Below are positions 1 to 14,325 of a stretch of 37,210 bases of DNA, in pieces. The stretch is from a virus (taxonomy: Duplodnaviria; Heunggongvirae; Uroviricota; Caudoviricetes), in IMG/VR virus record IMGVR_UViG_2713896798_000012; one strand, given 5' to 3'. Under the pieces are notes generated by a model. The model worked only from the letters and a program-made list of their open reading frames with translations, was not told the DNA's origin and searched no databases. Position numbers and translations under genes: made by a program. The first letter of the stretch is position 1, and the number at the start of each line of letters is the position of its first letter.

Positions 1-149
1 TCACCCCACCAGTCCCGATAACGTCAGGACTCGCCAGGCGGTGGAAAAGAAAATGGCAACCAGCATGACTAAAAATGAAATGCCGACGATTACACAGAGG
101 ATCTTCGCCAGCGTTATGAGTTTATCCGATATCATTAGCCACCACTCCA

Positions 150-719
150 TCAATCCGCCTTTGTTATTTTCCCTTTGCCTGTATCAGCCAGGACAAAATC
201 AATCAGCAGATTCGCTTCGTTTATCAATGTGCGGATTTTTGATACATGCGCGGATTTAACCTGTTTCCACTCATTCAGCCCGGTAGCAAACACACTGGCA
301 ATGTTTTTATCCCGTTTCATGTCAGCGCAAGCCTGATTGAGTTCTTCCATCACACTCATTCGACGGGGATTAACGACAAAACCCTTCGTCCAGTATTCAT
401 AGAGAACATCGTCACACTCTTCCTGATACTGGATTACCTTGCCGCGGATTTCGGGTTTTACTTTGTTGGGATTGATGGTTTGTAACCAGCCTGCAAGTTT
501 TCGAAGCGGCAGGGACACCATATTGCGTCGTTTCCCATCCTCAGCAACCATAACGATTTCCGTTATAGTTGACGCAAAACGCTGTCTTAACTTAGCCAAC
601 TGTGATTGCCAGGCCAGCCCCATCCCCGCAACGACAGGTTTCATGGGAACGTATGGTTCGCCGTTATGGTTAACCACATAAAGAGAATCGCCGTGAAACG
701 GCACGGTCATCATATTCAT
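150..719 (-). CDS. Phage antirepressor-like protein (Ant N-terminal-type domain)
   Basis: 189-aa ORF; N-terminal region resembles Ant-type antirepressor domains as I recall them; AAGGA RBS before ATG. Family from memory only. Confidence 0.5.
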   Translation of the reverse strand: MNMMTVPFHGDSLYVVNHNGEPYVPMKPVVAGMGLAWQSQLAKLRQRFASTITEIVMVAEDGKRRNMVSLPLRKLAGWLQTINPNKVKPEIRGKVIQYQEECDDVLYEYWTKGFVVNPRRMSVMEELNQACADMKRDKNIASVFATGLNEWKQVKSAHVSKIRTLINEANLLIDFVLADTGKGKITKAD

Positions 720-992
720 CGGTTATTTCCTTTTAGTGATGAACCCTGCGCACAGGAATAACCAGCCCAAAGAGGGTTAACCAGACCACTGCCGGTTATC
801 CACCAGGGCTCATCCTGAAAGGTTCTTTGGTTTATTTACGCTTGTGCGAAGCGCAGAAATGACAAAGGCACCATTACGGTGCCTCTTCATGAAACAATCT
901 TGTTGACTTTATTCACTTACATTTTGCCAGTTCGCAGGATTTCGTGTTATCTGCCGCGTTGGCCAACGTCATTTTTCAGCAAAATATTCTGC

Positions 993-1526
993 TTACCTGT
1001 CGATACCCCAGCATGACAGCGCACTCTCCTGGTCACGTCTTGATACCTGACCGTAGCAATTATTTGAGCGGATACGGCAGTCTCTGCCACCGTCCTTAAT
1101 CCACCAGCGAATCGCTTCGCAGGCACCTTTTCGATCACCTGCATTAATTCGTTTATAAAACGTCGACGGGAAACACTTACCGGGGCCAATGTTGTAAGGA
1201 CAGAATGACGCAATACCCGCTTTCTGGGGTTCAGTCAGTGGCACTCTGATGTTCTTCGCCACCCATGCCAGCGCCTTATCCCGTTCGATAGCGTTAACCC
1301 GGTCGCATTTTTCCTTCGACAGCTTCATGCCAGGAATCACAGGCTTACCATCCACCCGGGTGGCTCCACGGCAGATGGTCCAGATACCCACACCATCACG
1401 GTATGCCGTGGTGTGGTTACCTTCCTTTTCATCCAGAAACTGGTCGAGGATTTCAGGCGCAGAAGCACCTGCGGCAATCAGCGCCAGAACTACCGCTGAT
1501 AAACCATAGCGGAATTTCCTGCTCAT
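993..1526 (-). CDS. R: SAR endolysin (phage lysozyme, phage-21 R-like)
   Basis: 177 aa; hydrophobic signal-anchor-release-like N-terminus (YGLSAVVLALIAAGASAPEIL); lysozyme-like body; sits directly after the holin. Confidence 0.85.
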   Translation of the reverse strand: MSRKFRYGLSAVVLALIAAGASAPEILDQFLDEKEGNHTTAYRDGVGIWTICRGATRVDGKPVIPGMKLSKEKCDRVNAIERDKALAWVAKNIRVPLTEPQKAGIASFCPYNIGPGKCFPSTFYKRINAGDRKGACEAIRWWIKDGGRDCRIRSNNCYGQVSRRDQESALSCWGIDR

Positions 1527-1530
1527 CAGC

Positions 1531-1746
1531 TTACTCTCCCCGCGCCGCCTTACGCCGGTCTTCTTTAATCTTGAAATACAGGTTCGTCAGGTACGTCAGC
1601 AGACCAAACAGCAGACTCCCCAGCACGCCTATTGCCGCCCACTGAGACGGGGAAACCCTGTCCAGCAACTGCAGGAACCAGTAGCCCGTTCCCACCGCTG
1701 ACGTGGTGTATGACACACCTGTTGTGATTTTTTCCATCTGGTACAT
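1531..1746 (-). CDS. S: Pinholin (phage-21 S-like class II holin) with dual-start motif
   Basis: 71 aa; strong similarity to S21 (…GYWFLQ…[14 protein letters not shown]…[21 protein letters not shown]); Met1 and Met4 give the holin/antiholin dual start. Confidence 0.9.
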
Positions 1747-1824
1747 ACCCCGTCTCCCGCAATCCGGAAGCTCACAACATGAAAAAGGCCAGCAGCTGTT
1801 TACTGATGGCCCTGACTCCCTCCG

Positions 1825-2097
1825 TTACAGCATCATGACCGATTCGGGTTGAGGTTCAGTCGCATCGGCGACCGGTGATTCAGGCTGAACTTCACCGCTC
1901 TCTGCGGTGGTATCTCCCGCTTCAGTCGGTGGCTCTGCCTGTACACCAAGCAGTTCATCCAGAATGGCATCCACTTCTGCATCAAGACGCGCTTCCAGGT
2001 TATGGCGAAGTTTCTGTTTCAGTGCGCTCCGGACTTCTTCAGAGCGCAGGACGTCCTTCACTGCCTCTGCAGTGACCAGGGATGTAATTTCTGACAT
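1825..2097 (-). CDS. Hypothetical acidic phage protein upstream of holin
   Basis: Internal ATG of the 148-aa track ORF (MSEITSLV…), 90 aa; the track's longer N-terminus overlaps another small ORF and looks non-coding. Confidence 0.45.
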   Translation of the reverse strand: MSEITSLVTAEAVKDVLRSEEVRSALKQKLRHNLEARLDAEVDAILDELLGVQAEPPTEAGDTTAESGEVQPESPVADATEPQPESVMML

Positions 2098-2137
2098 GGG
2101 ATTTTCTCGTCGAAAGGTGTGATTAAGAAAGTTGCCG

Positions 2138-2317
2138 CTAAATGAGCGGCTCTTCGGGTTTGCTTCCGGCTGACTGACTGGCGCTGATTTTCTCAGCGGC
2201 CCTTTTGTCAATCTGTCTGCGCCAGAAGTCACGCATGGCCCTGTACCCACCCGAAAGGAGATACAGCACACAGACCACCGTACAGAAGTACAGCATTAAC
2301 TGGTTCAGAAATGTCAT
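2138..2317 (-). CDS. Small hydrophobic protein (59 aa), below ORF-track threshold
   Basis: Hand-translated ATG…TAG ORF (MTFLNQLMLYFCTVVCVLYLLSGG…) between nanS-p and the holin; weak RBS. Confidence 0.3.
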   Translation of the reverse strand: MTFLNQLMLYFCTVVCVLYLLSGGYRAMRDFWRRQIDKRAAEKISASQSAGSKPEEPLI

Positions 2318-2414
2318 AATTTCTTTCCGTTATTGTTGACAATAAGAACTGTTTTCATTAAAAACCAGAGTACGAAAGTATCGTTCCTTTATTTTTTCTC
2401 CATAGGTATCACCA

Positions 2415-2450
2415 CCGCCAGCGTCCATTCCTGTCGCTGGCGGTTTTTTT
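2415..2450 (+). terminator. Intrinsic terminator oriented on the plus strand (antisense to the late operon)
   Basis: CCGCCAGCG…CGCTGGCGG 9-bp stem followed by T7 on the plus strand; on the minus strand the stem has an A-run upstream and no T-run. Confidence 0.45.
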
Positions 2451-2451
2451 A

Positions 2452-4389
2452 TCATGCCGCAGTGTCTGTGCTGTTCACTTCCACCGCAATGCTGTCTATC
2501 AGTACCGGGTAAGTCGCACCTCTGGTAATGTCTGTCACATGCAGTTTATCCGCCGCAAAGGCACTGACCGGTGACTGCGTCAGCGTGAACGGTGTGCCAT
2601 CCTGACCATCAATAACCGGCGTCACCTGCAGGCTGTTATTCCCGGCAAAGCGGAAAGCCAGCGTATGCCATTCGTTATCAAATGCGCCAAAGGTTCCCAG
2701 TTTCAGGTTGTTTGTCGCCACTTTCGCATTGTGGTACATCACATTCAGGTCTTTTGCATCTGTCTGGATGTAGAACGCTGCCAGCAGGTTATTCCCCCCG
2801 TCTCCGGTCAGGGCAACGCCCTGTGGCAGTGAAGATACCGGCCAGTAAAACGCCATAACATACTGGTTCGCAGCCAGCGCTCCCGAAACCTTAAAGCGGC
2901 AGCGAATCTGCCCCCCTTTCTGTAACAGAGCCGCACCGTTGCCCGCGGCGTACTCCAGCACCCAGCTGCTTTTACCGGCTTCCTTGGTCAGCTTCACTGC
3001 CTTACCTCCGGTTCCCTCCGCATCGCTGACCACTTCTGCCCTGCCGCCACTGGCTGACCATCCCTGTACTTTCAGGCTTCCCTCTGACTCGCTGGCAAGG
3101 TAAGAGAGCAGTGTTGTGACGCCTGTGGCTTCTGCACCGGAAGGCGATGACGGGCGCACCTCTGATACTGTCGATGATGCCCCCGCGTTTAGCGCCACTC
3201 TTCCCGCATGGCGCAAAATCGCCGTTGCCAGACGGTCGGAAATAATCCCGCGGCGAGCCCATGAACTGAAATGGCTCGCCCTGTCCTGTGACGTCCAGGT
3301 GGCTGAGCTGTCACGCCATTTCGAACCGTAATATCCGATACCCGGAATGTCCGGGTCTTCTTCCGGTTTGTTCGTCGGCACATTCACCCCGTTCTCATCC
3401 GTCATGAACGGTACGAAATGGATATTCTTTTCCGTTTTGTTTTTATAGCTGCCATACACCGTCTGGTACGTGGATTCGTTCTTCTGCTTCCAGAAATACG
3501 TCGTGTCCCCGCATATCCAGGGAACACCGCCAGCAGAGCCACCGACGCACTGGCCTGCCATATCCGCCAGGTCTGCACGGAATTTATCAACCAGCGCACC
3601 AAACTGTGCGGCGTGATTTACCGGCGTACCGCCAAAATCAAATTCCCCCTGCATCCACACCACGGCAAACAGCACATTTTTCGGATTCTTCTTCAGTGCT
3701 GCTTTTGTTCGACCGATAAGGTCCTTATACAGCGGCTTGTCCACACCCCAGCGGGTTGAATTCTCCGAGGCACCACTCGCGTCACTGTATGTGCCATCGG
3801 CTCCGGTGGTGAACGCTGAACCACCACGACAGCACGGAACCAGCAGAATGCCCGCATTCGCCGGTATAAACGGCAGCAGTTTTTTGGCGATATGCAGCCC
3901 CTGCCCCACGGTTCCGTACTGCCCCTTTGACAGGTCCGCTTTCGGATGGTTAAGACGGCTCATGTCCTGCACATCATGCAGACAATGGTCCGCCGGAATG
4001 ATGTCGTTATATTTGCATACTGCACCGCCCGGTGTCACCGTACTGCGACGCGCTAACTGTTTAATACGTGGATCAGGGCTGTCGAATGTATCCGGCAATG
4101 GCAGTCCCTCACCGTATGACATACCATTGGACTGACCAGCAAGCGCGATCACATAGTAATATTCTGGCGCAACAGAAGGCGCTGAGGTCGTCGGACGGTT
4201 GCCTGGCTCCTCTGGTGATGAGATGCTCCCCTCACTCACAACTGGCTGGATGAACTCCGCACCATAACCAGCTGTCGAAATCAGCGCACTACCATAAGGC
4301 TGCCACCCTTCCTTCAGTTTTTGAGTTATTCGTTTCGCAAGGTCTGACGGCGACGCCGCCCTGACAACATCATAGTGTTTAAATGCCAT
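2452..4389 (-). CDS. nanS-p: Prophage sialate O-acetylesterase (NanS-p type)
   Basis: 645 aa, the size and position (between tRNAs and holin) of NanS-p esterases of Stx-type prophages; GGGAGGA RBS before ATG. Recognised from memory. Confidence 0.75.
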   Translation of the reverse strand: MAFKHYDVVRAASPSDLAKRITQKLKEGWQPYGSALISTAGYGAEFIQPVVSEGSISSPEEPGNRPTTSAPSVAPEYYYVIALAGQSNGMSYGEGLPLPDTFDSPDPRIKQLARRSTVTPGGAVCKYNDIIPADHCLHDVQDMSRLNHPKADLSKGQYGTVGQGLHIAKKLLPFIPANAGILLVPCCRGGSAFTTGADGTYSDASGASENSTRWGVDKPLYKDLIGRTKAALKKNPKNVLFAVVWMQGEFDFGGTPVNHAAQFGALVDKFRADLADMAGQCVGGSAGGVPWICGDTTYFWKQKNESTYQTVYGSYKNKTEKNIHFVPFMTDENGVNVPTNKPEEDPDIPGIGYYGSKWRDSSATWTSQDRASHFSSWARRGIISDRLATAILRHAGRVALNAGASSTVSEVRPSSPSGAEATGVTTLLSYLASESEGSLKVQGWSASGGRAEVVSDAEGTGGKAVKLTKEAGKSSWVLEYAAGNGAALLQKGGQIRCRFKVSGALAANQYVMAFYWPVSSLPQGVALTGDGGNNLLAAFYIQTDAKDLNVMYHNAKVATNNLKLGTFGAFDNEWHTLAFRFAGNNSLQVTPVIDGQDGTPFTLTQSPVSAFAADKLHVTDITRGATYPVLIDSIAVEVNSTDTAA

Positions 4390-4919
4390 GAATCCTCCCG
4401 GCCGGGATAATATTGTGAGTAAAATAAGGAGCGGGCTGAAGTCCGGAAGTTACAGGACAATGGCAGAAGGGAGACTACAGCCCGCAATTCGAAAAAGGTC
4501 GCGCAGTTGCGCAGAGTGATTACTATAGGGTATTATTCGCCAGCTGAAATATTACTTCACGTTTCATTGTTTATTCCTTGCCGCCCGCGTCTCCCAGCGC
4601 GGGCTTTTTTGTCCATAAGAAAGCCCCTCCGGAGAGGGGCTGGAGAGTGGCGCTATGTGCCATTGCATGGTGCCGGGTGCCTCCCGGTGAGTTCAGCCCG
4701 GTGCCACTAAACCCTCGTCATTCTCGTTTTGATAATCAGAGATTATACCGTCACCAGTCGCCCCTCCGCTCAGGGGGATTCACCATGCAAAACTTTTTTA
4801 ACAACTCTCCGTCAACCAGACAATCATCAACTGCCTGAATTGTGAGGCATTTAACATTTCACTGTCCAGTGTCTTTCCTGTAATAAAAAGCCCGCAAAAG
4901 CGAGCCTGGTAAATAAATA

Positions 4920-4996
4920 TGGCGCGTTGTACTGGATTCGAACCAGTGACCGATTGCTTAGAAGGCAATTGCTCTGTCCGGCTGAGCTAACAACGC
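4920..4996 (-). tRNA. argO: tRNA-Arg (anticodon UCU)
   Basis: Hand-folded 77-nt cloverleaf: acceptor GCGTTGT/ACAACGC, anticodon loop CTTCTAA, TTCGAAT T-loop, CCA end. Confidence 0.8.
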
Positions 4997-5009
4997 AGTG
5001 TGCAGATAA

Positions 5010-5086
5010 TGGACCGCCATCGAGGACTCGAACCCCGCGCAACCAGCTTCGAAGGCTGACGCTCTATCCCGATGAGCTAATGGCGG
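5010..5086 (-). tRNA. argN: tRNA-Arg (anticodon UCG)
   Basis: Hand-folded cloverleaf: acceptor CCGCCAT/ATGGCGG, anticodon loop CTTCGAA, CCA end; 5' end could be 1 nt off. Confidence 0.7.
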
Positions 5087-5093
5087 TATGTGA

Positions 5094-5169
5094 TGGTGGC
5101 CCTTGCTGGATTTGAACCAGCGACCTGGCGATTATGAGTCGCTCGCTCTCACCACTGAGCTAAAGGGCC
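5094..5169 (-). tRNA. ileZ: tRNA with CAU anticodon (Ile2/Met type)
   Basis: 76-nt cloverleaf: acceptor GGCCCTT/AAGGGCC, anticodon loop CTCATAA, T-loop TTCAAAT, CCA; first of an ileZ-argN-argO-like trio downstream of Q. Confidence 0.8.
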
Positions 5170-5330
5170 GGGCGCAGGATAATAACGGTACGTAACTAAT
5201 TCTGCAATATCATCCGTTCTGACTGACTACATTCTGAACTTCCCTGACCGTCTGCTCAAAACGCCCGCTCTCCAGCTCAACGCCAATTGCACGACGCCCT
5301 AGCGCCATTGCTGCTTTGACGCTACGGACA

Positions 5331-5360
5331 TAAAAAAGCCAGCCACTGGGGGAGGCTGGC
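5331..5360 (-). terminator. Intrinsic terminator between Q and the tRNA cluster (tR'-like)
   Basis: Minus strand GCCAGCC-loop-GGCTGGC 7-bp stem followed by T6. Confidence 0.6.
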
Positions 5361-5537
5361 AAACTCGTAGAGCAAAATGCTGTTACGCAAACTTCGTTAC
5401 AGGGTTATCCTGCAATACTTAAAATATACAATATTTAGAAAACTAATAGTGCTATATGCGATTTTTAAGATTTTGTTATTAATTACGGTCGCACCTTCCT
5501 TTCTGTGTACTTTCCGTATAGCTCACAGGATTCGGGG

Positions 5538-5562
5538 TACAAAAAAACCCGCGCATCGGCGG
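5538..5562 (-). terminator. Intrinsic terminator just downstream of Q
   Basis: Minus strand CCCGC-loop-GCGGG followed by T7. Confidence 0.55.
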
Positions 5563-5610
5563 GTTCGACTGCGTGGCAATGTAACCACTCTTATCATGAT
5601 ATGCAGATTT

Positions 5611-6045
5611 TTACGATCGTAAACTATTTTTTCGCTGATAAAATACAGAGGTTCTCCCTCCCGGCAATTCACGCTCAACATACCGATCCATCTCAAGCCT
5701 CACTCCCAGCATCATCAGCATGCCTTCAACAATCCCCTCCGCTTTGTGAAGGCGTTTACCTATACAGGTGTCAGAGCACCCATGTTTCCGTGCCAACGCC
5801 ATGAACGTCTCCCCCAACACGTAATAATCAACCAGCAAGTCATGCAGATCGCGATTGTTCCGGTAAAGGCGGGCTATGCACCCGCATATCACCATCGCAT
5901 CATCGTCACAGCACTGTGGACGTGATTTTACTTTTTCGGGGATCAGTCCCTTAAATCCGGCAGCAATGGGCGACCATGTAACATCCTCATAGTTATTTGC
6001 CGCCCATGCCCCCCAGCGCTCAAGAACCTGCCGGATATCACGCAT
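5611..6045 (-). CDS. Q: Late-gene antiterminator Q (Stx-phage/82-type)
   Basis: Start taken at [18 protein letters not shown]… (144 aa), matching my recollection of the 933W-type Q N-terminus; overlaps ninH stop by 8 nt. Confidence 0.75.
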
Positions 6046-6232
6046 CAGTATCTTTACCCCATCCGCGGTGAACCATAAGAACACCGTTGACGATAGCGTG
6101 TCTTTTCCCTTCTTTATCGCCAGTGTATTTTCTGACCGTGTTGCGACTACAGTTCAGTATTCTGGCTACCTCGGTCTGATTTTCATATGCCTCAACGAGC
6201 ATGTCAGGAATGGTTTTTACTGTGAACGTCAT
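6038..6232 (-). CDS. ninH: NinH
   Basis: 64 aa [14 protein letters not shown]…[18 protein letters not shown]…, near-identical to lambda NinH as I recall it. Confidence 0.8.
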
Positions 6233-6834
6233 GCGGCCTCACTTCTGCTGTTTCGCAGGTCTTTAAGTTTCTGCTGATACTTCGCCTTGATCGCCCTGCA
6301 TTCTTCGACAGTCCAGCGATGGCGGTTATGGTTTGATTCGATTTCGTCTACTGCTTCCTGCCCGATGCGGTTAATCAGTTCGACGCGATACGGAACGAGA
6401 TTTCCGCTTTTATGTTGGTTGCACACCACGCATTGCTTGTGAATATTGCGTTCATCAAATCGGAGTTGAGGCGCAGCAGCAGTTGTCCGGTAATGCCCGG
6501 CATCCCACTGAGCAGACGTGAGCGTTCCGCACGAGATACATGGTAAGTCGCGGTCTCTTTCTCTGATGAAGGCGTTTACGGCTTGTTGGGCTTGTTTAAT
6601 CCAGTAACTGCGGGGCTTTAAGGCGAGTTTTCGAATCTTAAGTTTATCTTTCTGTTTCTGCTCCTCTCGTCGTCGTTTCTTCTCTGCTGCCTTTTCCGCT
6701 TTTTCGCGTTCTTTGCTTCGTCGTTCGAGTGCTAATTGAGTTCCGTGTTCCGGGCTGCACCACCACTGATTTGAGAATGCCGGGTGAAACCATTCCTTAC
6801 AGATTTTGCATTTCCTTCGCGCTGGTTTAGCCAT
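6229..6834 (-). CDS. ninG: NinG (Rap) recombination-associated endonuclease
   Basis: 201 aa, close to lambda NinG (MAKPARR…WWCSPE…CVVCNQHK…). Confidence 0.9.
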
Positions 6835-7556
6835 TAAGCAGCCTCCCCTGTTACTTTCAGCATTCCGTTATCGAGCAGCTTTCTGGTCAGCCACTGTTGA
6901 CCACGCCCGGTGATTTTTGTGGTGAACGATATCTGTATTCCGTGATTTGTATTGACCGCTGTTTCTTTCACTGTGAAATAGCCGCGCTCCATATATTCCT
7001 GCATTGGCACATTTCGCCGGGAACCTGAAGCAATAAGGATTTTGTGATCGCGCATCCACGCAAACAGTTTGTTTGGACCAATACCAACAACCTTTGCAAA
7101 GTTTCCAATCAAAATTCCGCTGGCCTCGCCAACGCGATCGGCAAACTCAACTTTAGGTGCGGCAATTGCGAGCTGGTTTTCCAGTTGCATTTTCTGCTCA
7201 GCAAGATCAGCAGCAAGGCGCAACGCTTCTGGTAGCGTTTTGGGGATATTAACCGCAGCTTCTTCAAGCTCTCGCCAGCGGTCAACAAGGCGAGCGGTGA
7301 ATTCCGGCGACAGCTGGGCTACAACGACAATACTGTCTCGCTTTCCTTGTTCGCCTTCGAAGACGTAATGCTCGTACTGAACATTGAACCCTAAGTTATT
7401 GATTCTTTCGGAAACCTCAATTTGAGGAAGCCGGATAACACCATTTTTAGCCAGCGTTTCGATGGTACGTTTCACATTGTCATGACGCTTACCCACCAAC
7501 TCAGCGATTTCAATGCTTGTCATTTTGATGGCATTGCCATTTATTAACTCACTCAT
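6834..7556 (-). CDS. Rha-family phage regulatory protein / antirepressor
   Basis: 240 aa; N-terminal Rha-like region ([19 protein letters not shown]) plus antirepressor-like C-terminal part. Confidence 0.65.
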
Positions 7557-8053: not shown

Positions 8054-9667
8054 TTATTTATTGGTGAGTACTACGTTCCATGGCAGGAGTTCGTCAACTC
8101 GGTTGGAAGGCCATTCCGGCAGTACGCTCAGGATATGGCGCAGATACGCTTCCGGATCGATACCGTTCAGACGGCAGGTGCCGATCAGCCCGTACAACAG
8201 TGCTCCACGCTCGCCGCCGTGATCGCTGCCAAAGAACATAAAGTTTTTCTTTCCGAGACAGACTGCACGAAGCGCTCTTTCCGCAGCATTATTATCCGCC
8301 TCCGCCAGACCGTCATCACTGTAATAACAGAGGGCATCCCACTGATTCAGTACATAGCTGAACGCTTCGCCCAGTCTGGATTTTTTCGACAGCGTACCAT
8401 TCTTCTCCACCATCCATTCATGCAGCGACGTCAGTAACACTTTGCTTCGCTGCTGCCTGACGGCAAGACGCTCTGACTCCGGTAATCCCCGTATTTCATC
8501 CTCGATGGCGTACAGTTCACTGATTCGCTTCAGGGCTTCTTCTGCCGTCGCACTTTTGCTGCTGATGTATACATCGTGGATTTTTCGCCGGGCATGGGCC
8601 CAGCACGCAACTTCTGTCAGTGCACCACCTTCACGTTCTGCACTGAACAACCTGTCGTAACCTGTGAACGCATCCGCCTGCAGGATACCCCGGAAGGGGC
8701 GGAGGTGTTGCTCCGGGTGTTTCCCCTGCCGGTTCGGCGAGTACGCGAACCAGACCGCTGGAGGAGATGACGAACCCACATTGCGATCATCCCGGACATA
8801 CGTCCAGATACGCCCTGTTTTCGCCTTTTTCTGACCCGGTGCCAGTACCTTTACCGGTGTGTCATCAGTGTGAACCTTGCGGGTGTTCATTACATAACGG
8901 TACAGGGCATCATTCACCGGTGTCATTAACTGGCAGCACGCGTCAACCCAGTTGGAGAGTAAGGCCCGGCTCAGTTCGACACCCTGGCGGGCAAAGATTT
9001 CACTCTGACGATACAGTGGCAGATGTTCGCAGTATTTTCCCGTTAACACGCGGGCAAGTAATCCGGGGCCCGCGATACCACGCTCTATCGGGCGGGACGG
9101 CGCCGGTGCTTCAACAATACAGTCACATTTTGTACAGGCTTTTTTTACCCGTTCTGTGCGGATCACTTTCAGGGCACTGCTCACCAGTTCCAGCTGTTCA
9201 GCGCTGACTTCCCCCAGATAATCCAGCTCACCGCCACACTCCGGGCAACAGCTTTCTTCTGGCTCCAGGCGGTGTATTTCACGGGGAAGGTGTGCCGGTA
9301 ACGGACGACGATGGCGCGACTGTCGCAACTGGCGGGGAACCTGAGGATCGTCTTCCCGCCCACTGTAACGATCGCTGTCCTGTTCACGTTGTTTCAGCAG
9401 AGCCTCAGCCAGTTCAACTTCACGACGCAGTTTTTCAGAACGGGTACCGAACAGCATCCGGCGCAGTTTTTCTATCTGAGCCCGCAGATGTTCTATTTCC
9501 CGTTCATCTTCTTCGATCTTTTCTTCGGCACGTGTCAGTGCAGAGCGCAGGAAGGCTTCCGTCTCTTCAACCAGACTCAGTTGCTGGTCTTTCTGACGGA
9601 GGGCTTCAGCCTGCTCAGAGAGCAACCTTTCCAGCTCTGCGATGCGAATGAGGTATTTCTGACTCAT
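8054..9667 (-). CDS. tnpC: IS66-family transposase TnpC
   Basis: 537 aa with N-terminal coiled coil and CxxC zinc motifs typical of IS66 TnpC. Confidence 0.9.
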   Translation of the reverse strand: MSQKYLIRIAELERLLSEQAEALRQKDQQLSLVEETEAFLRSALTRAEEKIEEDEREIEHLRAQIEKLRRMLFGTRSEKLRREVELAEALLKQREQDSDRYSGREDDPQVPRQLRQSRHRRPLPAHLPREIHRLEPEESCCPECGGELDYLGEVSAEQLELVSSALKVIRTERVKKACTKCDCIVEAPAPSRPIERGIAGPGLLARVLTGKYCEHLPLYRQSEIFARQGVELSRALLSNWVDACCQLMTPVNDALYRYVMNTRKVHTDDTPVKVLAPGQKKAKTGRIWTYVRDDRNVGSSSPPAVWFAYSPNRQGKHPEQHLRPFRGILQADAFTGYDRLFSAEREGGALTEVACWAHARRKIHDVYISSKSATAEEALKRISELYAIEDEIRGLPESERLAVRQQRSKVLLTSLHEWMVEKNGTLSKKSRLGEAFSYVLNQWDALCYYSDDGLAEADNNAAERALRAVCLGKKNFMFFGSDHGGERGALLYGLIGTCRLNGIDPEAYLRHILSVLPEWPSNRVDELLPWNVVLTNK

Positions 9668-9697
9668 GACCGTTTTTATAATGCGGTCAGGAGTTTT

Positions 9698-10048
9698 TTA
9701 CAACATTGTCAGTGAGTTACGGCTGGATGTTTTTGGCTGACGCCAGTCCAGCTTATCGAGGAGCATTGCCAGTTGCGAGCGGGTAATGGATACCTTGCCG
9801 TCACGTACCGCAGGCCAGATAAACTGGCCTTCCTCCAGGCGTTTGGTGAACAGGCACAGACCATCAGCATCAGCCCAAAGAATTTTGACGGTGTCACCCC
9901 GTCGGCCACGGAAGATAAACAGGTGACCGGAGAAGGGATTATCATTCAGCACATGTTGTACCTGTTCTCCCAGTCCGTTGAAGGATTTACGCATATCGGT
10001 AACGCCGGCAACGAGCCAGATACGGGTACCTGATGGGAGTGAGATCAT
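9698..10048 (-). CDS. tnpB: IS66-family accessory protein TnpB
   Basis: 116 aa, IS66 Orf2-like (…LVAGVTDMRKSFNGL…). Confidence 0.85.
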   Translation of the reverse strand: MISLPSGTRIWLVAGVTDMRKSFNGLGEQVQHVLNDNPFSGHLFIFRGRRGDTVKILWADADGLCLFTKRLEEGQFIWPAVRDGKVSITRSQLAMLLDKLDWRQPKTSSRNSLTML

Positions 10049-10470
10049 CTTCCCCTCCCGGTCAGTTCACGGATCAACACTGTGAGCAGCTCTGGCGATG
10101 GATTTTCCAGCGTCATGTTACCGTGACGGAATTCCACCTTGCAGGAACTGGCACTGACTCTGGTCTGAGTGGAAGTGGATAAAGACGGCGCAATGGCCGC
10201 CACAGGTTCTTTCTGCTCATCCGGCGTTATTTCTACAGGTAATAATTCAACGCCAGTGTCAGAAGAGGTCGTTACCGGAAGACGCCGCGAAACACGCCCT
10301 TCGTTCTGCCAGAGCCTGAGCCATTTGAAAATAACATTATCATTGACGCCATTTTCACGTGCAATCTGTGCAACACAAGCTCCAGGTTGTGATGCCAGTT
10401 CCACCATACGAAGTTTGAATTCATTCGAATAGTTTTTACGAGGTTCTTTTCGCCAGTCCTGTAATTCCAT
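10045..10470 (-). CDS. tnpA: IS66-family accessory protein TnpA
   Basis: 141 aa, HTH-like N-terminus; overlaps tnpB start. Confidence 0.8.
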   Translation of the reverse strand: MELQDWRKEPRKNYSNEFKLRMVELASQPGACVAQIARENGVNDNVIFKWLRLWQNEGRVSRRLPVTTSSDTGVELLPVEITPDEQKEPVAAIAPSLSTSTQTRVSASSCKVEFRHGNMTLENPSPELLTVLIRELTGRGR

Positions 10471-10555
10471 ACTTAGATGTCCGTCTATATCAGATGGGCG
10501 TCTAAGTTACCAATTCTCGTCTGATGGCTACATACGGCGGTCAGTTTACGCTTAC

Positions 10556-10888
10556 GTACTCCTGACGACAGAAGTTATTAAATTCCTTCTCCGACTGTTT
10601 AAGCTCCGCATTCTCTGCCGCCAGCACCGAAAACTTCTCGTGTGCCAACTTAACAGCCGCATCAGCCTGCTTAATTGACTCAATCGCTTTCTGTTGGTCT
10701 TCGGCCAGCTCCGCTAAATTAGCCTCCAGTTCGGCTATGCGTTCGTTTAATGCATCTCGTTCATCCAGTAGCGCCAGCACAACCTGAGGTGTGACTTTCA
10801 TACGAAATGCCAGCAATTTTTGAGGCGTTGCTACTGTTTCAATTGCTACTGCCGCCTCACGCAGTGCCTGATAGTCAATTTTGCTCAC
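10556..10888 (-). pseudogene. 5' portion of an Ea22/Ead-like gene truncated by IS copy A
   Basis: Track ORF 10541-10888 runs 15 nt into the IS terminal repeat (…FCRQEY|VSVN*); N-terminus MSKIDYQ.LRE matches the paralog at 30985. Confidence 0.75.
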
Positions 10889-11085
10889 TGGTTGCCTCCT
10901 TTGCGCAACATCGCATTCAGATATTTGTTGTCATTAACAGAACCGAAACTCTTTCTCTTAAGCAATTCCTCTCTCGAGGGCATTGGCTTTACGCGTTGGC
11001 GAATAATCATTTCTGCCGGAAGAATGCCGGGATTGTATGCAAGTCCTCTCATGGTAAATTCCTCAGTCATTACTGATAGCGCCAT
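10885..11085 (-). CDS. Hypothetical small protein (C-terminus …RKGGNQ)
   Basis: 66-aa ATG ORF; its stop overlaps the next start as in the ea22-like tandem genes. Confidence 0.4.
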
Positions 11086-11359
11086 AGCGTGAGCGGTAAT
11101 TACGCAGGCGCGGGTCGATATATTCAGGGAATTTGTCTATTGTCGCTTTTCGCAACGGTCTCATTGCTGTTTCGTTTGTTCGGTCCTTCTCCTGTTTTAG
11201 CGCGAGTTGTATATCGCGTCGGTACATCCGTTCTGCTTTTGTTTCTGGTGTCAGAGCAAGAAACGCGTCGAAATTGTTTTTGATATTTTCCAGCACCTCC
11301 GCCTTGGAGCTACCGGAGCAGTTGCGCGGGTCATCCGCACCATACAGAGGCGCTGGCAT
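11063..11359 (-). CDS. Hypothetical protein
   Basis: 98-aa ORF in the early-left operon orientation. Confidence 0.4.
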
Positions 11360-11382
11360 AATGGGAGCCTTATTTTCAGTAA

Positions 11383-11970
11383 TCAGAAAGGAGGGTAATC
11401 GTTCTGGCTGTAACCATAATCATCTGCATGATTATGGCTTACGTTTTTAGAGCGATTGTCTTTATCTTTGAGGCTGGCAACCATGTTGGCGATAGTTTCT
11501 GGTTGCTTGCCTTCTGCCTTTTCTTTAAGGGTTTGACCTGTTTGTGCAATAAACGGGATGCGTATTTCCATCTGGTAGCTGTCTGCGCCAGTCTTTTTGT
11601 TTGTGGTTAATACTTTCTGGAGCACTAACCCGATTTTCTTTCCATGAAATTCAGGTGCAACAAATTTACTGGCGGAAACCATATGTTGCGTTAATTGTCC
11701 AATCCCGGCACACCCCATCATGGCGTGAACGACATTTGCGCCAAATTTGTTTTCCGTGCCGTCATTTTTCTGAACACAGACGCTAAGATACTGGATTTTA
11801 CGTCCGTCGTCGGATTCTCCAGAAAACTCAATAAATTTGGCTCCTTTTTCTGATTGCTTGAGTTCTGCTTCAGTAATGGTAATTATGTGAGCGCCAGTTT
11901 CGTTAATAAAACCACCTTGCCCTGCGGTCAGTGCTGCTTCTTCGTTATAAGTAAAAATTACGTTGCTCAT
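11383..11970 (-). CDS. Hypothetical phage protein (195 aa), possible partner of the adjacent ATPase
   Basis: ORF with upstream RBS-like sequence; no family confidently recognised. Confidence 0.5.
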   Translation of the reverse strand: MSNVIFTYNEEAALTAGQGGFINETGAHIITITEAELKQSEKGAKFIEFSGESDDGRKIQYLSVCVQKNDGTENKFGANVVHAMMGCAGIGQLTQHMVSASKFVAPEFHGKKIGLVLQKVLTTNKKTGADSYQMEIRIPFIAQTGQTLKEKAEGKQPETIANMVASLKDKDNRSKNVSHNHADDYGYSQNDYPPF

Positions 11971-11974
11971 GCTT

Positions 11975-12595
11975 TTATCCTTTTGATAAGGCCTTGTCTA
12001 CAGACCAATGATATGTGTAAATCCTGCTTCTTACCGTGCTTGGGTTTAATCCAGTTTTTTCGCAGTGCTCTGAAATTGTTGCCAGCACTCCATTGAATTT
12101 AAATAATACGGTATTACTCTTATTTCTTGCTTGCTCGATACTTTTCTGCCATTCGCAATTTGATGGTTCGTAATTACCATTGTTATCAATTCTTCCCAAT
12201 GTAGTTCCGTCAGGTCTTTTTCCCATATCAGCGAAAAATAATTTAAAGTTCAGCCACCGTTCACAAACAGTTATTCCTCTTCCTCCATAGTGTTTGTATT
12301 TACTATTTCTTTCATTGAAGCATCTTGTTAACATTGAAGACCATGACTTGTATGTTGGTGTTCCATACATGCCATGTTTGTTTTTTCTTGCTTTTGTTGT
12401 AGATGAGCGTGAGCAACCACAACTTCTTGTGTGCCCTGAACGGAGGTTGCCAAGCTGTTTAACACAAACTACTCCGCAGTCACACACACAGTTTACCAAC
12501 CTTTGAGTACCACGCATTCCTGCATCACCAATAACAACTAAATTGCCAAATCTCTCGCCGGATACCTCAAGACGTCTCATTTTTTTCAAACCCAT
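11975..12595 (-). CDS. Cys-rich putative DNA-binding/nuclease-like protein
   Basis: 206 aa; CxCDCGVVC…CGCS zinc-ribbon-like cluster and a YKSWSSMLTRC…YGGRGITVCERW motif I associate with phage DNA-binding or HNH-like proteins. Confidence 0.45.
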   Translation of the reverse strand: MGLKKMRRLEVSGERFGNLVVIGDAGMRGTQRLVNCVCDCGVVCVKQLGNLRSGHTRSCGCSRSSTTKARKNKHGMYGTPTYKSWSSMLTRCFNERNSKYKHYGGRGITVCERWLNFKLFFADMGKRPDGTTLGRIDNNGNYEPSNCEWQKSIEQARNKSNTVLFKFNGVLATISEHCEKTGLNPSTVRSRIYTYHWSVDKALSKG

Positions 12596-13223
12596 AGTAA
12601 GAGCATATTTTTTTATCTACTTCGTACAAATCATTATCAATAAACTGACTATCAAACATCCCAACCGGACTTTTACAACAATCACTCCCGTTTGTCTGGG
12701 TGGAAAATGAGTATTTTCCGTTCTGTACGTGAGTTCTTAACACGATAGTGAAATAACCTTCAGGAACAAGTGTCGAATCGACTAGTTTTCCGACGGTTTT
12801 CATTCGTGTATAGCCAAAATCATCAGTTTGCGTGTGTGCCAGAATATAAACTCTCCGAGTGTCTGCACCTTCACCAGCAGCCCTGAACACATCCCATGCG
12901 TTTTTCCCTATCGAGGTAAATTTGTCATATCCTCTCTCATTGCATTTACCCATTAGTTCGTTAACCATCACAGCCTGATAATCATCAATAACTACAATTT
13001 CATGCGGAGCATTAATTAGTGCCCTTACAATATTTTCAGTATTATCTGTTCTGTATATGTTCCCGTTATTGTTTTCCTTGCTTATTTTAACCCAATCACT
13101 TGATGGGAATGGTAGCGGTTTGTTTATGCACTGTATGATTAATGTTTTTTCTGGTGGTAAGTTTCTTAAACTGGTTGATTTTCCGGTGCCAGACTCACCG
13201 AGTATTAATGTCGCAGTACCCAT
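12567..13223 (-). CDS. P-loop NTPase (phage Sak4-like ATPase?)
   Basis: Walker A ILGESGTGKST and Walker B-like EIVVIDDYQ; 218 aa; occupies the recombination-module position of the pL operon. Confidence 0.6.
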   Translation of the reverse strand: MGTATLILGESGTGKSTSLRNLPPEKTLIIQCINKPLPFPSSDWVKISKENNNGNIYRTDNTENIVRALINAPHEIVVIDDYQAVMVNELMGKCNERGYDKFTSIGKNAWDVFRAAGEGADTRRVYILAHTQTDDFGYTRMKTVGKLVDSTLVPEGYFTIVLRTHVQNGKYSFSTQTNGSDCCKSPVGMFDSQFIDNDLYEVDKKICSYYGFEKNETS

Positions 13224-13231
13224 AATTCACC

Positions 13232-13432
13232 TCAGAATGGTAATTCGGATGGGGAGGAAAGAAATTCGCGCTCATTCATGCGCTCTCTTTGTGCCTGCCA
13301 TAAGCAAAGTTGTTTCTTTGATTTATCTCCCGCTTTACGCCAGTAACGAGCCTCAGCAATGTGATACTCTCTTTTTAATCGACTTAACTCTGGGGTTTTC
13401 GCCAGTTCTACCGGAATCATTTTGACCTCCAT
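13232..13432 (-). CDS. Hypothetical small protein
   Basis: 66-aa ORF between kil and the ATPase gene. Confidence 0.35.
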   Translation of the reverse strand: MEVKMIPVELAKTPELSRLKREYHIAEARYWRKAGDKSKKQLCLWQAQRERMNEREFLSSPSELPF

Positions 13433-13530
13433 TTTCTGTAGGCTTCTACGGCTTCACGAAACATCTTTTCATCGCCAATAAAAGTGGCGATAGTGAATTT
13501 AGTCTGGATAGCCATAAGTGTTTTATCCAT
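13417..13530 (-). CDS. kil: Kil (host-killing/division inhibition peptide)
   Basis: Internal ATG giving MDKTLMAIQTKFTIATFIGDEKMFREAV…, matching lambda Kil N-terminus; overlaps cIII stop by 8 nt. Confidence 0.7.
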   Translation of the reverse strand: MDKTLMAIQTKFTIATFIGDEKMFREAVEAYRKWRSK

Positions 13531-13663
13531 TTTTTGGAACTCCTGGCTGATTAAGTATGTCGATAAGGCGTTTCCATCCGTCACGTAATTTACGGGTGAT
13601 TCGCTCAAGTAAAGATTCGGAAGGGCAGCCAGCAACAGGCCACCCTGCAATGGCATATTGCAT
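13523..13663 (-). CDS. cIII: CIII (FtsH inhibitor)
   Basis: 46 aa MQYAIAGWPVAGCPSESLLERITRKLRDGWKRLIDILNQPGVPKNG, essentially lambda CIII; AAGGAG RBS. Confidence 0.85.
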   Translation of the reverse strand: MQYAIAGWPVAGCPSESLLERITRKLRDGWKRLIDILNQPGVPKNG

Positions 13664-13721
13664 GGTGTGCTCCTTATTTATACATAACGAAAAACGCCTC
13701 GAGTGAAGCGTTATTGGTATG

Positions 13722-13854: not shown

Positions 13855-14325
13855 CTAATAAAATACCCAATTTTCTGTTTCTTGGTTGTGTCCAAAGTTA
13901 TATTCAATATCTGGTGTTGATGTATCAATATTCTTCATCCCATCAACAAGAGTTGATACAACAGCCAAATCTTGTTTGATTCTCATTAAATGGTATTTCT
14001 TCCGGCGCAATAAACTTTCAATGGCAAGTTTCTTCGTTGGGAATGCAAAAGATCTTTCTGCATTTTTTGCTACTTTCTTAATTGCATATCTATTTCTCCT
14101 TTGTTTCCATTCCTGTAACCACTGATTTGGTGCTGGTTTAAAATTAACAATCCAATGCGCAGGAACCAACCATGCATAATGCTCTGTCTGATGAAAAGCT
14201 ATATATTGAAGTGCGTATATTTTGATCCCATCTTCTTCAACTGTCGCCTGGAATCTCCAGAAAACAGGCATTCCATCATGTTCAGTTTCTGATTCAGGAA
14301 AAGGTACGCTCCATGATTTTGTCAT
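13855..14325 (-). CDS. Hypothetical protein (AT-rich insert between N and cIII)
   Basis: 156 aa; strong GAGGTGA RBS; visibly AT-rich; followed by a 9-bp-arm hairpin and terminator. Confidence 0.6.
   Translation of the reverse strand: MTKSWSVPFPESETEHDGMPVFWRFQATVEEDGIKIYALQYIAFHQTEHYAWLVPAHWIVNFKPAPNQWLQEWKQRRNRYAIKKVAKNAERSFAFPTKKLAIESLLRRKKYHLMRIKQDLAVVSTLVDGMKNIDTSTPDIEYNFGHNQETENWVFY

Follow-up and report, generated by a model that had tools for sequence, protein, structure and literature searches.

The subject of this article is a compact block of early genes in a 37,210-nucleotide stretch of DNA from a virus of the Caudoviricetes (IMG/VR virus record IMGVR_UViG_2713896798_000012; by the window I mean this whole stretch), and in particular one gene, here called X, that stands between two partners of a recombination module. 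Four open reading frames (ORFs), all on the minus strand, lie at 12567-13223 (218 aa), 11975-12595 (206 aa), 11383-11970 (195 aa) and 13232-13432 (a small one of 66 aa), with kil (Pfam E=6e-21) and cIII directly upstream and N further upstream. The three larger ORFs are just as the original prediction, made from the letters alone, had described them: a Walker A/B ATPase, an overlapping Cys-rich protein and a 195-aa protein in the place where lambda has gam-bet-exo, taken together as a possible Sak4-type single-strand-annealing module. These ORFs are real genes and not chance occurrences, because they match PHROG families (E-values of 1e-64 to 1e-82), have thousands of homologues per protein and show low ratios of nonsynonymous to synonymous divergence against relatives (dN/dS ~0.06-0.10). 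The gene order in the window, (cIII-kil)-hkaM-sak4-[X]-ssb-abc2, is the same as in phage HK620 apart from X, and sequence comparison makes it likely, both parts being judged jointly, that the region is an HK620-type Rec module of the pL operon in a lambdoid, Stx-phage-like prophage and that X is not a member of it, being an insert of the homing-endonuclease type.

The ATPase gene, sak4 (12567..13223, minus strand), is a chimeric allele encoding a 218-aa, core-only RecA-like ATPase of the single-strand annealing protein kind. Its product matches phrog_2872, 'Sak4-like ssDNA annealing protein', with E=3.7e-82 over residues 1-216 of 218, and is 51% identical over 97% of its length (tblastn E=3e-67) to HkaL, the Sak4 of HK620, for which ATP-dependent binding and annealing of single-stranded DNA (ssDNA), stimulated by the cognate SSB, has been described (PMC5928155); it is this match and this homology that bear out the proposal of a Sak4-type annealing module at the gam-bet-exo position. 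Size and architecture fit the core-only class (~200-230 aa, a P-loop core with Walker A and B only): the Walker A codons (GESGTGKST, aa 9-17) lie at 13173..13199 and the Walker B codons (IVVIDD, aa 76-81, with VVIDD at aa 77-81) at 12981..12998, both on the minus strand, and G9, S11, G12, K15 and S16 of the first motif, like D80 and D81 of the second, are invariant in an alignment of 34 clade members. Pfam AAA_24 gives the window's Sak4 24.1 bits against a cutoff of 27, a shortfall that is uninformative because the HK620 protein used as a control barely passes, at just 30 bits, and the model is marginal across the clade (21.7 bits for the Salmonella allele).

The 195-aa protein is an HK620-type phage SSB, the product of ssb (HkaK, 'SSB-2', DUF669-type; 11383..11970, minus strand), and is identical to the SSB of HK620 at 193/195 positions, the differences being E152V and H179Q. 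It matches phrog_743 (E=3e-66), and some of its homologues carry the PGAP label DUF669; Pfam gives no match to it even at E<=10, a silence that is again uninformative, since the characterised HK620 SSB gives none either (control at E<=1). HkaK has been purified and is a genuine ssDNA-binding protein whose C-terminal NDYPPF is needed for stimulating annealing and recombineering: removing the last six residues lowers Sak4-dependent recombineering about 10-fold, and with the tail-less SSB the binding of Sak4 to SSB-coated ssDNA is abolished (PMC5928155). The tail in the window (codons at 11386..11403, minus strand) is identical to that of HK620.

Outside the coordinates first considered, the functional module reaches past 11383 to its last gene, abc2 (11063..11359, minus strand), which occupies the same place as HK620 hkaJ and encodes an anti-RecBCD protein (Pfam Anti-RecBCD_p2 over the full length, E=1.5e-35, 121.7 bits against a cutoff of 25; phrog_656, E=5e-45). 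The first gene of the module, at the other end, is an hkaM homologue (13232..13420, minus strand; 62 aa with the PGAP/HK620 start, extendable to 13432 for 66 aa) whose product is 61/62 identical to HK620 HkaM and matches phrog_1723 (E=2e-33); HkaM has been called an orphan without known function (PMC5928155). As the biochemistry of the HK620 module is already published, the main outcome here is one of annotation, now settled for such Stx-type prophage genes: what is labelled 'AAA family ATPase' or 'hypothetical protein' in these prophages is the Sak4/SSB/Abc2 module.

Gene X (11975..12580, minus strand) is a putative homing-endonuclease-like gene of 201 aa when read from M6 (12580), the likely real start, which is used by its homologues and by PGAP; the maximal ORF runs to 12595 and 206 aa. 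It overlaps sak4 by 29 nt from the first ATG or by 14 nt from M6, leaves a gap of 4 nt to ssb, and is probably translationally coupled to sak4 and co-transcribed with it. The motif to which the original prediction had drawn attention, YKSW...RC...YGGRGI...CERW, is present and is conserved family-wide, and a literature search on YGGRGI returned just irrelevant venom-peptide papers. PHROG families labelled 'HNH endonuclease' match X with E=2e-64 and are the only source of that label, Pfam, NCBIfam and PDB-sequence searches having returned no match. The family checks that had been suggested (AAA_24/Sak4, DUF669 and HNH profiles) all lead in the right direction, by unequal routes, with Sak4 recognised through PHROG and below the AAA_24 cutoff, SSB through its identity to HK620 and without a Pfam match, and HNH as a PHROG label without a Pfam HNH model behind it.

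AlphaFold models X with confidence (pLDDT 94.8 over the whole protein, and 88.7 when the central domain is modelled by itself), and the model has three parts. Residues 13-61 (12413..12559, minus strand) form a Cys-rich beta module (C38, C40 ... C59, C61) that is probably a zinc-finger DNA-binding unit; residues 74-160 (12116..12376, minus strand) form a central domain with a predicted beta(131-135)-loop-beta(147-151)-helix(152-157) fold and putative active-site residues R135, Y142, N146 and N158; and residues 165-204 (11984..12103, minus strand) form, in the secondary structure of the model, a C-terminal beta-hairpin and three helices, probably a helix-turn-helix (HTH) unit, to which Pfam HTH_23 gives a weak match (E=0.036), other family members matching various HTH families. 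Y142, N146 and N158 are invariant among 227 family members and R135 is found in 222/227, the rest being gaps; Q155, too, is invariant in the X clade. The catalytic His expected at the end of beta-1 is absent and R135 stands there instead. PacI is a His-Me finger enzyme that has no catalytic His, uses a loop Tyr in its place and holds its metal by Asp and Asn (PMC5714182, PMC4081073), and the R135/Y142/N146/N158 arrangement would be a PacI-like pattern, as matched through predicted secondary structure and not by superposition.

Furthermore, the wider family to which X belongs is large and modular. The N-terminal Cys module (...FGxLxV...WxCxCxCG...SCGC) also occurs in nuclease-free tandem arrays of 6-9 copies (P0245, P0253, P0355), which resemble the repeated zinc-finger DNA-binding modules known from phage homing endonucleases (PMC10448857), and duplication of the central domain occurs as well. 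An exhaustive search with the family profile brings up 211,162 representatives of 50%-identity clusters, a figure that is inflated by stand-alone Cys-module arrays and is not a nuclease count, with 95,092 of them at E<=1e-30, and there are matches in 1,092 phage records. In many phages, members are often neighbours of essential genes, DNA polymerase among them, or lie inside these, and they are found at other positions, too, in phages that bear Sak4. This is, then, a Pfam-less nuclease-like family that is abundant in phages and has no characterised member, and its 'HNH' name is mostly a transferred annotation.

Whether X is part of the module was judged from 82 informative loci that encode the window's Sak4 or a relative of it, namely 78 viral contigs, three genomes and the window itself, gathered by alignment-based searches, single-protein locus searches having given few. 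In all 82 loci ssb lies 3' of sak4, and in the window only X comes between; a phage ssb gene has been reported to adjoin about 80% of sak4 genes (PMC5928155). In 72 of the 82 ssb follows sak4 directly, whereas an X homologue stands between the two in the remaining 10, and the X-occupied loci (these 10 together with L175 and L176) are spread over 7 of the 38 Sak4 clusters at 80% identity. The idea of a three-gene unit consequently holds for sak4 and ssb and fails for the Cys-rich gene, which the synteny comparison reveals to be optional, so that the lack of co-conservation named in the original prediction as damaging to it applies to one gene of the three. The complete sak4-X-ssb arrangement was found in 3 of 5,426 complete E. 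coli genomes and in 1 of 50,697 phage records (Stx2a phage Stx2_16002), against roughly 230 E. coli genomes that have the module without X; in a large protein database, the proteins most similar to X (81% and 70% identity) are also encoded in a sak4-X-ssb order.

Two near-isogenic pairs of occupied and empty sites display the insertion itself. The occupied locus L175 and the empty locus L174 have flanks that are 95-96% identical and Sak4 proteins that are 98% identical, and 609 bp stand in place of 22 bp; similarly, between L096 and L097 the flanks are 77-79% and Sak4 92% identical, and 612 bp stand in place of 64 bp. The left edge falls in both pairs directly after the conserved Sak4 C-terminal '[F/Y]YG' codons, so the insertion removes the Sak4 tail, which in L174 is FNNTHPIKENAA, and the new stop codon of sak4 falls within the beginning of X. 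Because X is optional among the loci and because such near-isogenic pairs exist, X is an insertion and not a co-conserved member. Its nuclease part being putative, X displays the genomic signatures accepted for free-standing homing endonuclease genes, which include polymorphic presence, patchiness, modularity and position at an exchange boundary (PMC10448857).

Truncated or divergent forms occur as well. A Burkholderiaceae metagenome-assembled genome (L004, 4645-5109) has a truncated X of 154 aa without the N-terminal Cys module at the sak4|ssb site, and similar short forms of 119-156 aa (63-71% identity) are present in the protein database, one of them from Azotobacter vinelandii. Three loci (L116, L117 and L120) carry a more distant subclade of the X family at sak4|ssb, with an acidic residue (IER or IDR) at the equivalent of X position 134, which suggests either independent occupations of the site or a state ancestral to the Gly substitution of the X clade. 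A metagenome scan anchored on X brought up distant relatives only (37-48% identity) on short contigs, and 0 of 80 had sak4 or ssb nearby, which is weak evidence. In the literature, no description was found of an endonuclease-like gene between sak4 and ssb.

The window adds to this polymorphism a mosaic structure. Compared with the Stx phage TL-2011a, it is 100% identical over 11000-11972, up to two bases before the ssb ATG, and 95% identical over 13100-13700, and between these flanks there is nothing that BLAST can align; aligned base by base with TL-2011a and HK620, the window stays nearly identical from the upper flank to ~13171 and diverges beyond that point, which places the upstream breakpoint (~13170) at the 3' edge of the Walker A codons. 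The imported block (11973..13170) thus consists of the divergent 3' ~92% of sak4 together with gene X, ~1.2 kb replacing 551 bp of the common HK620/TL-2011a-type module, and it ends exactly at the 3' edge of X on one side and at the first conserved stretch, Walker A, on the other. With the Salmonella-type loci L174 and L175 it shares 78-88% identity, against just 40-75% between their flanks and those of the window, and the nearest relative of its Sak4 is a Salmonella prophage allele without X (L174; 86-87% protein identity). Synonymous divergence (dS) against L175 is 1.41 for sak4 and 0.98 for X, values similar enough to indicate that the two travelled together, and X is not decaying (dN/dS 0.105 against L175). 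The sak4 of the window is, in short, a chimera, a Salmonella-phage-type sak4(3')+X cassette in an HK620/TL-2011a-type backbone.

One consequence is a mixed pair: with a foreign sak4 in an HK620-type backbone, Sak4 and SSB now come from different lineages. The SSB of the window is 63% identical to the SSBs of its nearest Sak4 relatives and ends in NDYPPF, as in HK620, whereas the window's Sak4 lineage is normally accompanied by an SSB of the DDDIDF type (L174 and L175); a third tail, DGFTPF, is found in L176. The DDDIDF tail resembles the DDDIPF of E. coli SSB.

How the parts may act together can be sketched by homology to HK620, for which each step has been demonstrated: Abc2 would bind and alter RecBCD, so that DNA ends are processed and not destroyed, the phage SSB would cover the resulting ssDNA, its NDYPPF tail would recruit Sak4 as a minimal RecA-like ATPase, and Sak4 would anneal complementary single strands in an ATP-dependent manner. 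X would stand outside this Rec machinery as a probably selfish, free-standing gene of the homing-endonuclease type that has its place at the 3' end of sak4, with a predicted architecture of zinc-finger-like and HTH modules flanking a PacI-like, His-less beta-beta-alpha-Me domain; it would have inserted right after the YYG codons in place of the Sak4 tail, and the ~1.2-kb cassette would have entered by two crossovers, one within the codons for Walker A and the other at the start of ssb, the nearest two stretches conserved between the module types. Homing may have been the cause of the co-conversion of the flanking sak4 sequence, and double-strand-break repair from an X-bearing donor cannot be separated here from ordinary mosaic recombination, both of which would give the same boundaries. 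I would only tentatively go further and propose that X represents a His-less and Asp-less PacI-like homing endonuclease lineage that is a specialist for the 3' end of sak4 and drags sak4 along with it, moving annealase alleles around among the Salmonella and E. coli lambdoid phages and so making hybrid Sak4/SSB pairs whose compatibility would depend on the SSB tail.

Several points weigh against reading X as a mobile endonuclease in a working module. No conserved nucleotide target was found at the sak4/ssb junction among 64 unique empty loci, which are too diverse for it; Pfam HNH models match none of 102 X-family members; and in 43/43 members of the X clade the residue before R135 is Gly134, a position that is Asp or Glu in 155/179 (87%) of the wider family. 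Selection on X is purifying, X and sak4 have diverged in step, and every close relative examined (56-81% identity) lies at this single site, all of which would fit a useful resident gene, too. On the side of the module, the window's Sak4 is just 51% identical to the biochemically tested protein, the working of the hybrid Sak4/SSB pair is assumed by analogy, and the prophage, which has several IS66 elements, may be rearranged or defective.

The purifying selection and the fixed location keep alive the alternative that X belongs rightfully to the Rec module as its working nuclease, producing nicks or ends from which SSB and Sak4 would receive ssDNA, in a role like that of Exo in lambda, although I regard this as unlikely. 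The tight packing would suit it (the 14-nt overlap with sak4, the 4-nt gap to ssb and the probable translational coupling), as would a dN/dS of about 0.10, the co-divergence with sak4 and the confinement of all close relatives examined to exactly this position, and HNH nucleases have indeed been argued to be Rec-module members, for example in phage ES18: a 2025 survey of lambdoid Rec modules regards some tightly packed HNH genes as module nucleases, while cautioning about HNH mobility (PMC12315714). However, X is missing from 72/82 loci of the Sak4 clade and from HK620, where sak4 and ssb by themselves suffice for the full activity of the module; some phages that are nearly isogenic differ in having or lacking X; its insertion deletes the C-terminal tail of Sak4; and its wider family is scattered beside unrelated genes. 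End processing, moreover, would already be supplied by Abc2-modified RecBCD. The ES18 precedent is not directly transferable, because gp47 of ES18 is unrelated to X and differently placed: it is a canonical Pfam HNH_3 protein without significant similarity to X (BLASTP E=0.08), and was rejected as a homologue on these grounds.

The Gly134 substitution leads to a second alternative, that X descends from a homing endonuclease but has lost the nuclease activity and is kept as a sequence-specific DNA binder that acts as a regulator or protects or marks its own locus. Judging from the sequence, the X clade may no longer cleave DNA, as an Asp/Glu metal ligand has given way to Gly in every clade member and the catalytic His is absent, and the two predicted DNA-binding modules and the strong conservation of X would agree with a retained binding function; His-Me finger groups in which catalysis is lost and DNA binding kept are known (PMC5714182), and DNA-binding domains of homing endonucleases have been recruited as repressors, as in CapR (PMC10448857). 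I nevertheless find it improbable, for R135, Y142, N146, Q155 and N158 are still invariant in the clade, which is hard to explain if the catalytic centre is irrelevant, and the recent variation in whether X is present, seen in backgrounds that are 95-98% identical, suggests that it is still mobile. The missing ligand, also, might be replaced by acidic D123, or by D137, which most members have. That the three genes make up a defence system or an anti-defence one, the latter a function for which the original prediction had left room, is very improbable and was dropped, since PADLOC gave no system (its only match was a 14-bit P-loop), the SSB is 99% identical to a proven ssDNA binder that stimulates annealing by Sak4, and the homologue of the window's Sak4 is a proven annealase (PMC5928155), even though the genes lie in the early-left region where lambdoid phages keep many accessory and host-takeover genes and have a known anti-RecBCD protein, Abc2, next door.

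With X best read as a homing-endonuclease-type insert in an HK620-type module, what is new here is modest: a sak4-site-specific clade of a Pfam-less, putatively PacI-like family, situated at a mosaic boundary and accompanied by a hybrid Sak4/SSB pair. It offers a natural example of nuclease-type genes marking the boundaries of genetic exchange in temperate phages, and the hybrid pair provides a test case for how much tolerance the Sak4-SSB interaction has.

The rest of the prophage holds a few observations of its own. Between N and cIII there is a 156-aa ORF (13855-14325, minus strand) that matches phrog_1636 with E=7e-112 and has no Pfam match. A gene at 19395-21788 (plus strand) encodes a 797-aa DnaB-like replicative helicase with an apparent intein interrupting the P-loop; splicing it out restores GMGK-T, the insert of ~338 aa matches LAGLIDADG_3 (E=7e-6), Hom_end and, weakly, Hint, and the first residue of the putative intein is Ala and not Cys or Ser. 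From its sequence, this appears to be a second homing-type element in the same prophage. IS66-family transposases are present in three copies, at 8054-10470 (minus strand), 24006-25544 (plus strand) and 29040-30653 (plus strand), the first element having TnpA, TnpB and TnpC of 141, 116 and 537 aa and abutting an ead/Ea22-like gene that is shortened, with 115 aa (10541-10888) compared to 240 aa in strain UTAK-1. To the left of this IS66, 1-7556 (minus strand) carries nin/late-region genes, among them those for a NanS-p-like SASA esterase of 645 aa, NinG and a KilAC/Rha antirepressor, where the related prophage of UTAK-1 has xis/int. Contiguous coverage of window positions 1-25000 does not exceed 40% in any complete E. 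coli genome, and the arrangement of the left end suggests an IS-associated rearrangement or the junction of two prophages.

Among known systems, the closest is the HK620 module hkaM-sak4(hkaL)-ssb(hkaK)-abc2(hkaJ), which has the same order and the same position after cIII-kil as the window (Hutinet et al. 2018, PMC5928155). The likeness extends to an SSB identical at 193/195 positions with its NDYPPF tail, HkaM at 61/62, an identical Walker A, a Sak4 that is homologous over its full length and an Abc2 of the same Pfam family; the window differs in the extra gene X and in its chimeric, 51% identical Sak4, which is 8 residues shorter and has no ...IKENAA tail. The Stx phage TL-2011a matches the flanks of the window at 95-100% DNA identity and has an empty site, and the Salmonella prophages L173 and L174 are likewise without X, L174 having the closest X-less sak4 allele (86% at the protein level); in the empty sites of TL-2011a and of Salmonella, sak4 overlaps ssb by 4 nt, where the window has X between them. 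Direct overlap of the two genes is also seen in HK620 and in the many Stx phages with flanks like those of the window.

For X itself, the comparison is with nucleases of several kinds. PacI (PDB 3M7K), of the His-less group 20 of His-Me fingers, is 13-14% identical to X, with no match at the level of sequence; it differs in that its Asp ligand is Gly in the X clade, and X is a phage operon insert with added DNA-binding modules and not a restriction enzyme. The ES18 Rec module (PMC12315714) is likewise lambdoid, and has a tightly packed HNH-superfamily gene together with genes for a single-strand annealing protein, SSB and Abc2, but there the annealing protein is Erf, the SSB is of the bacterial type, and gp47 (Pfam HNH_3, E=9e-13) lies between ssb and abc2. 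The putative nuclease domain of X is distinct from HNH_3, GIY-YIG/T5orf172 and IPA-HNH, and the IPA-HNH class of ICP1, with its N-terminal HNH and C-terminal AP2, was rejected for X on architecture. With T4 mobE and the seg genes and with the homing endonuclease genes of ICP1 (PMC2790892, PMC2988022, PMC10448857), X shares variable presence among close relatives and truncated copies. Like the homing endonuclease genes of phages more generally, it is placed between conserved genes of DNA metabolism, combines what would be a nuclease with predicted DNA-binding modules, and lies at a boundary of genetic exchange.

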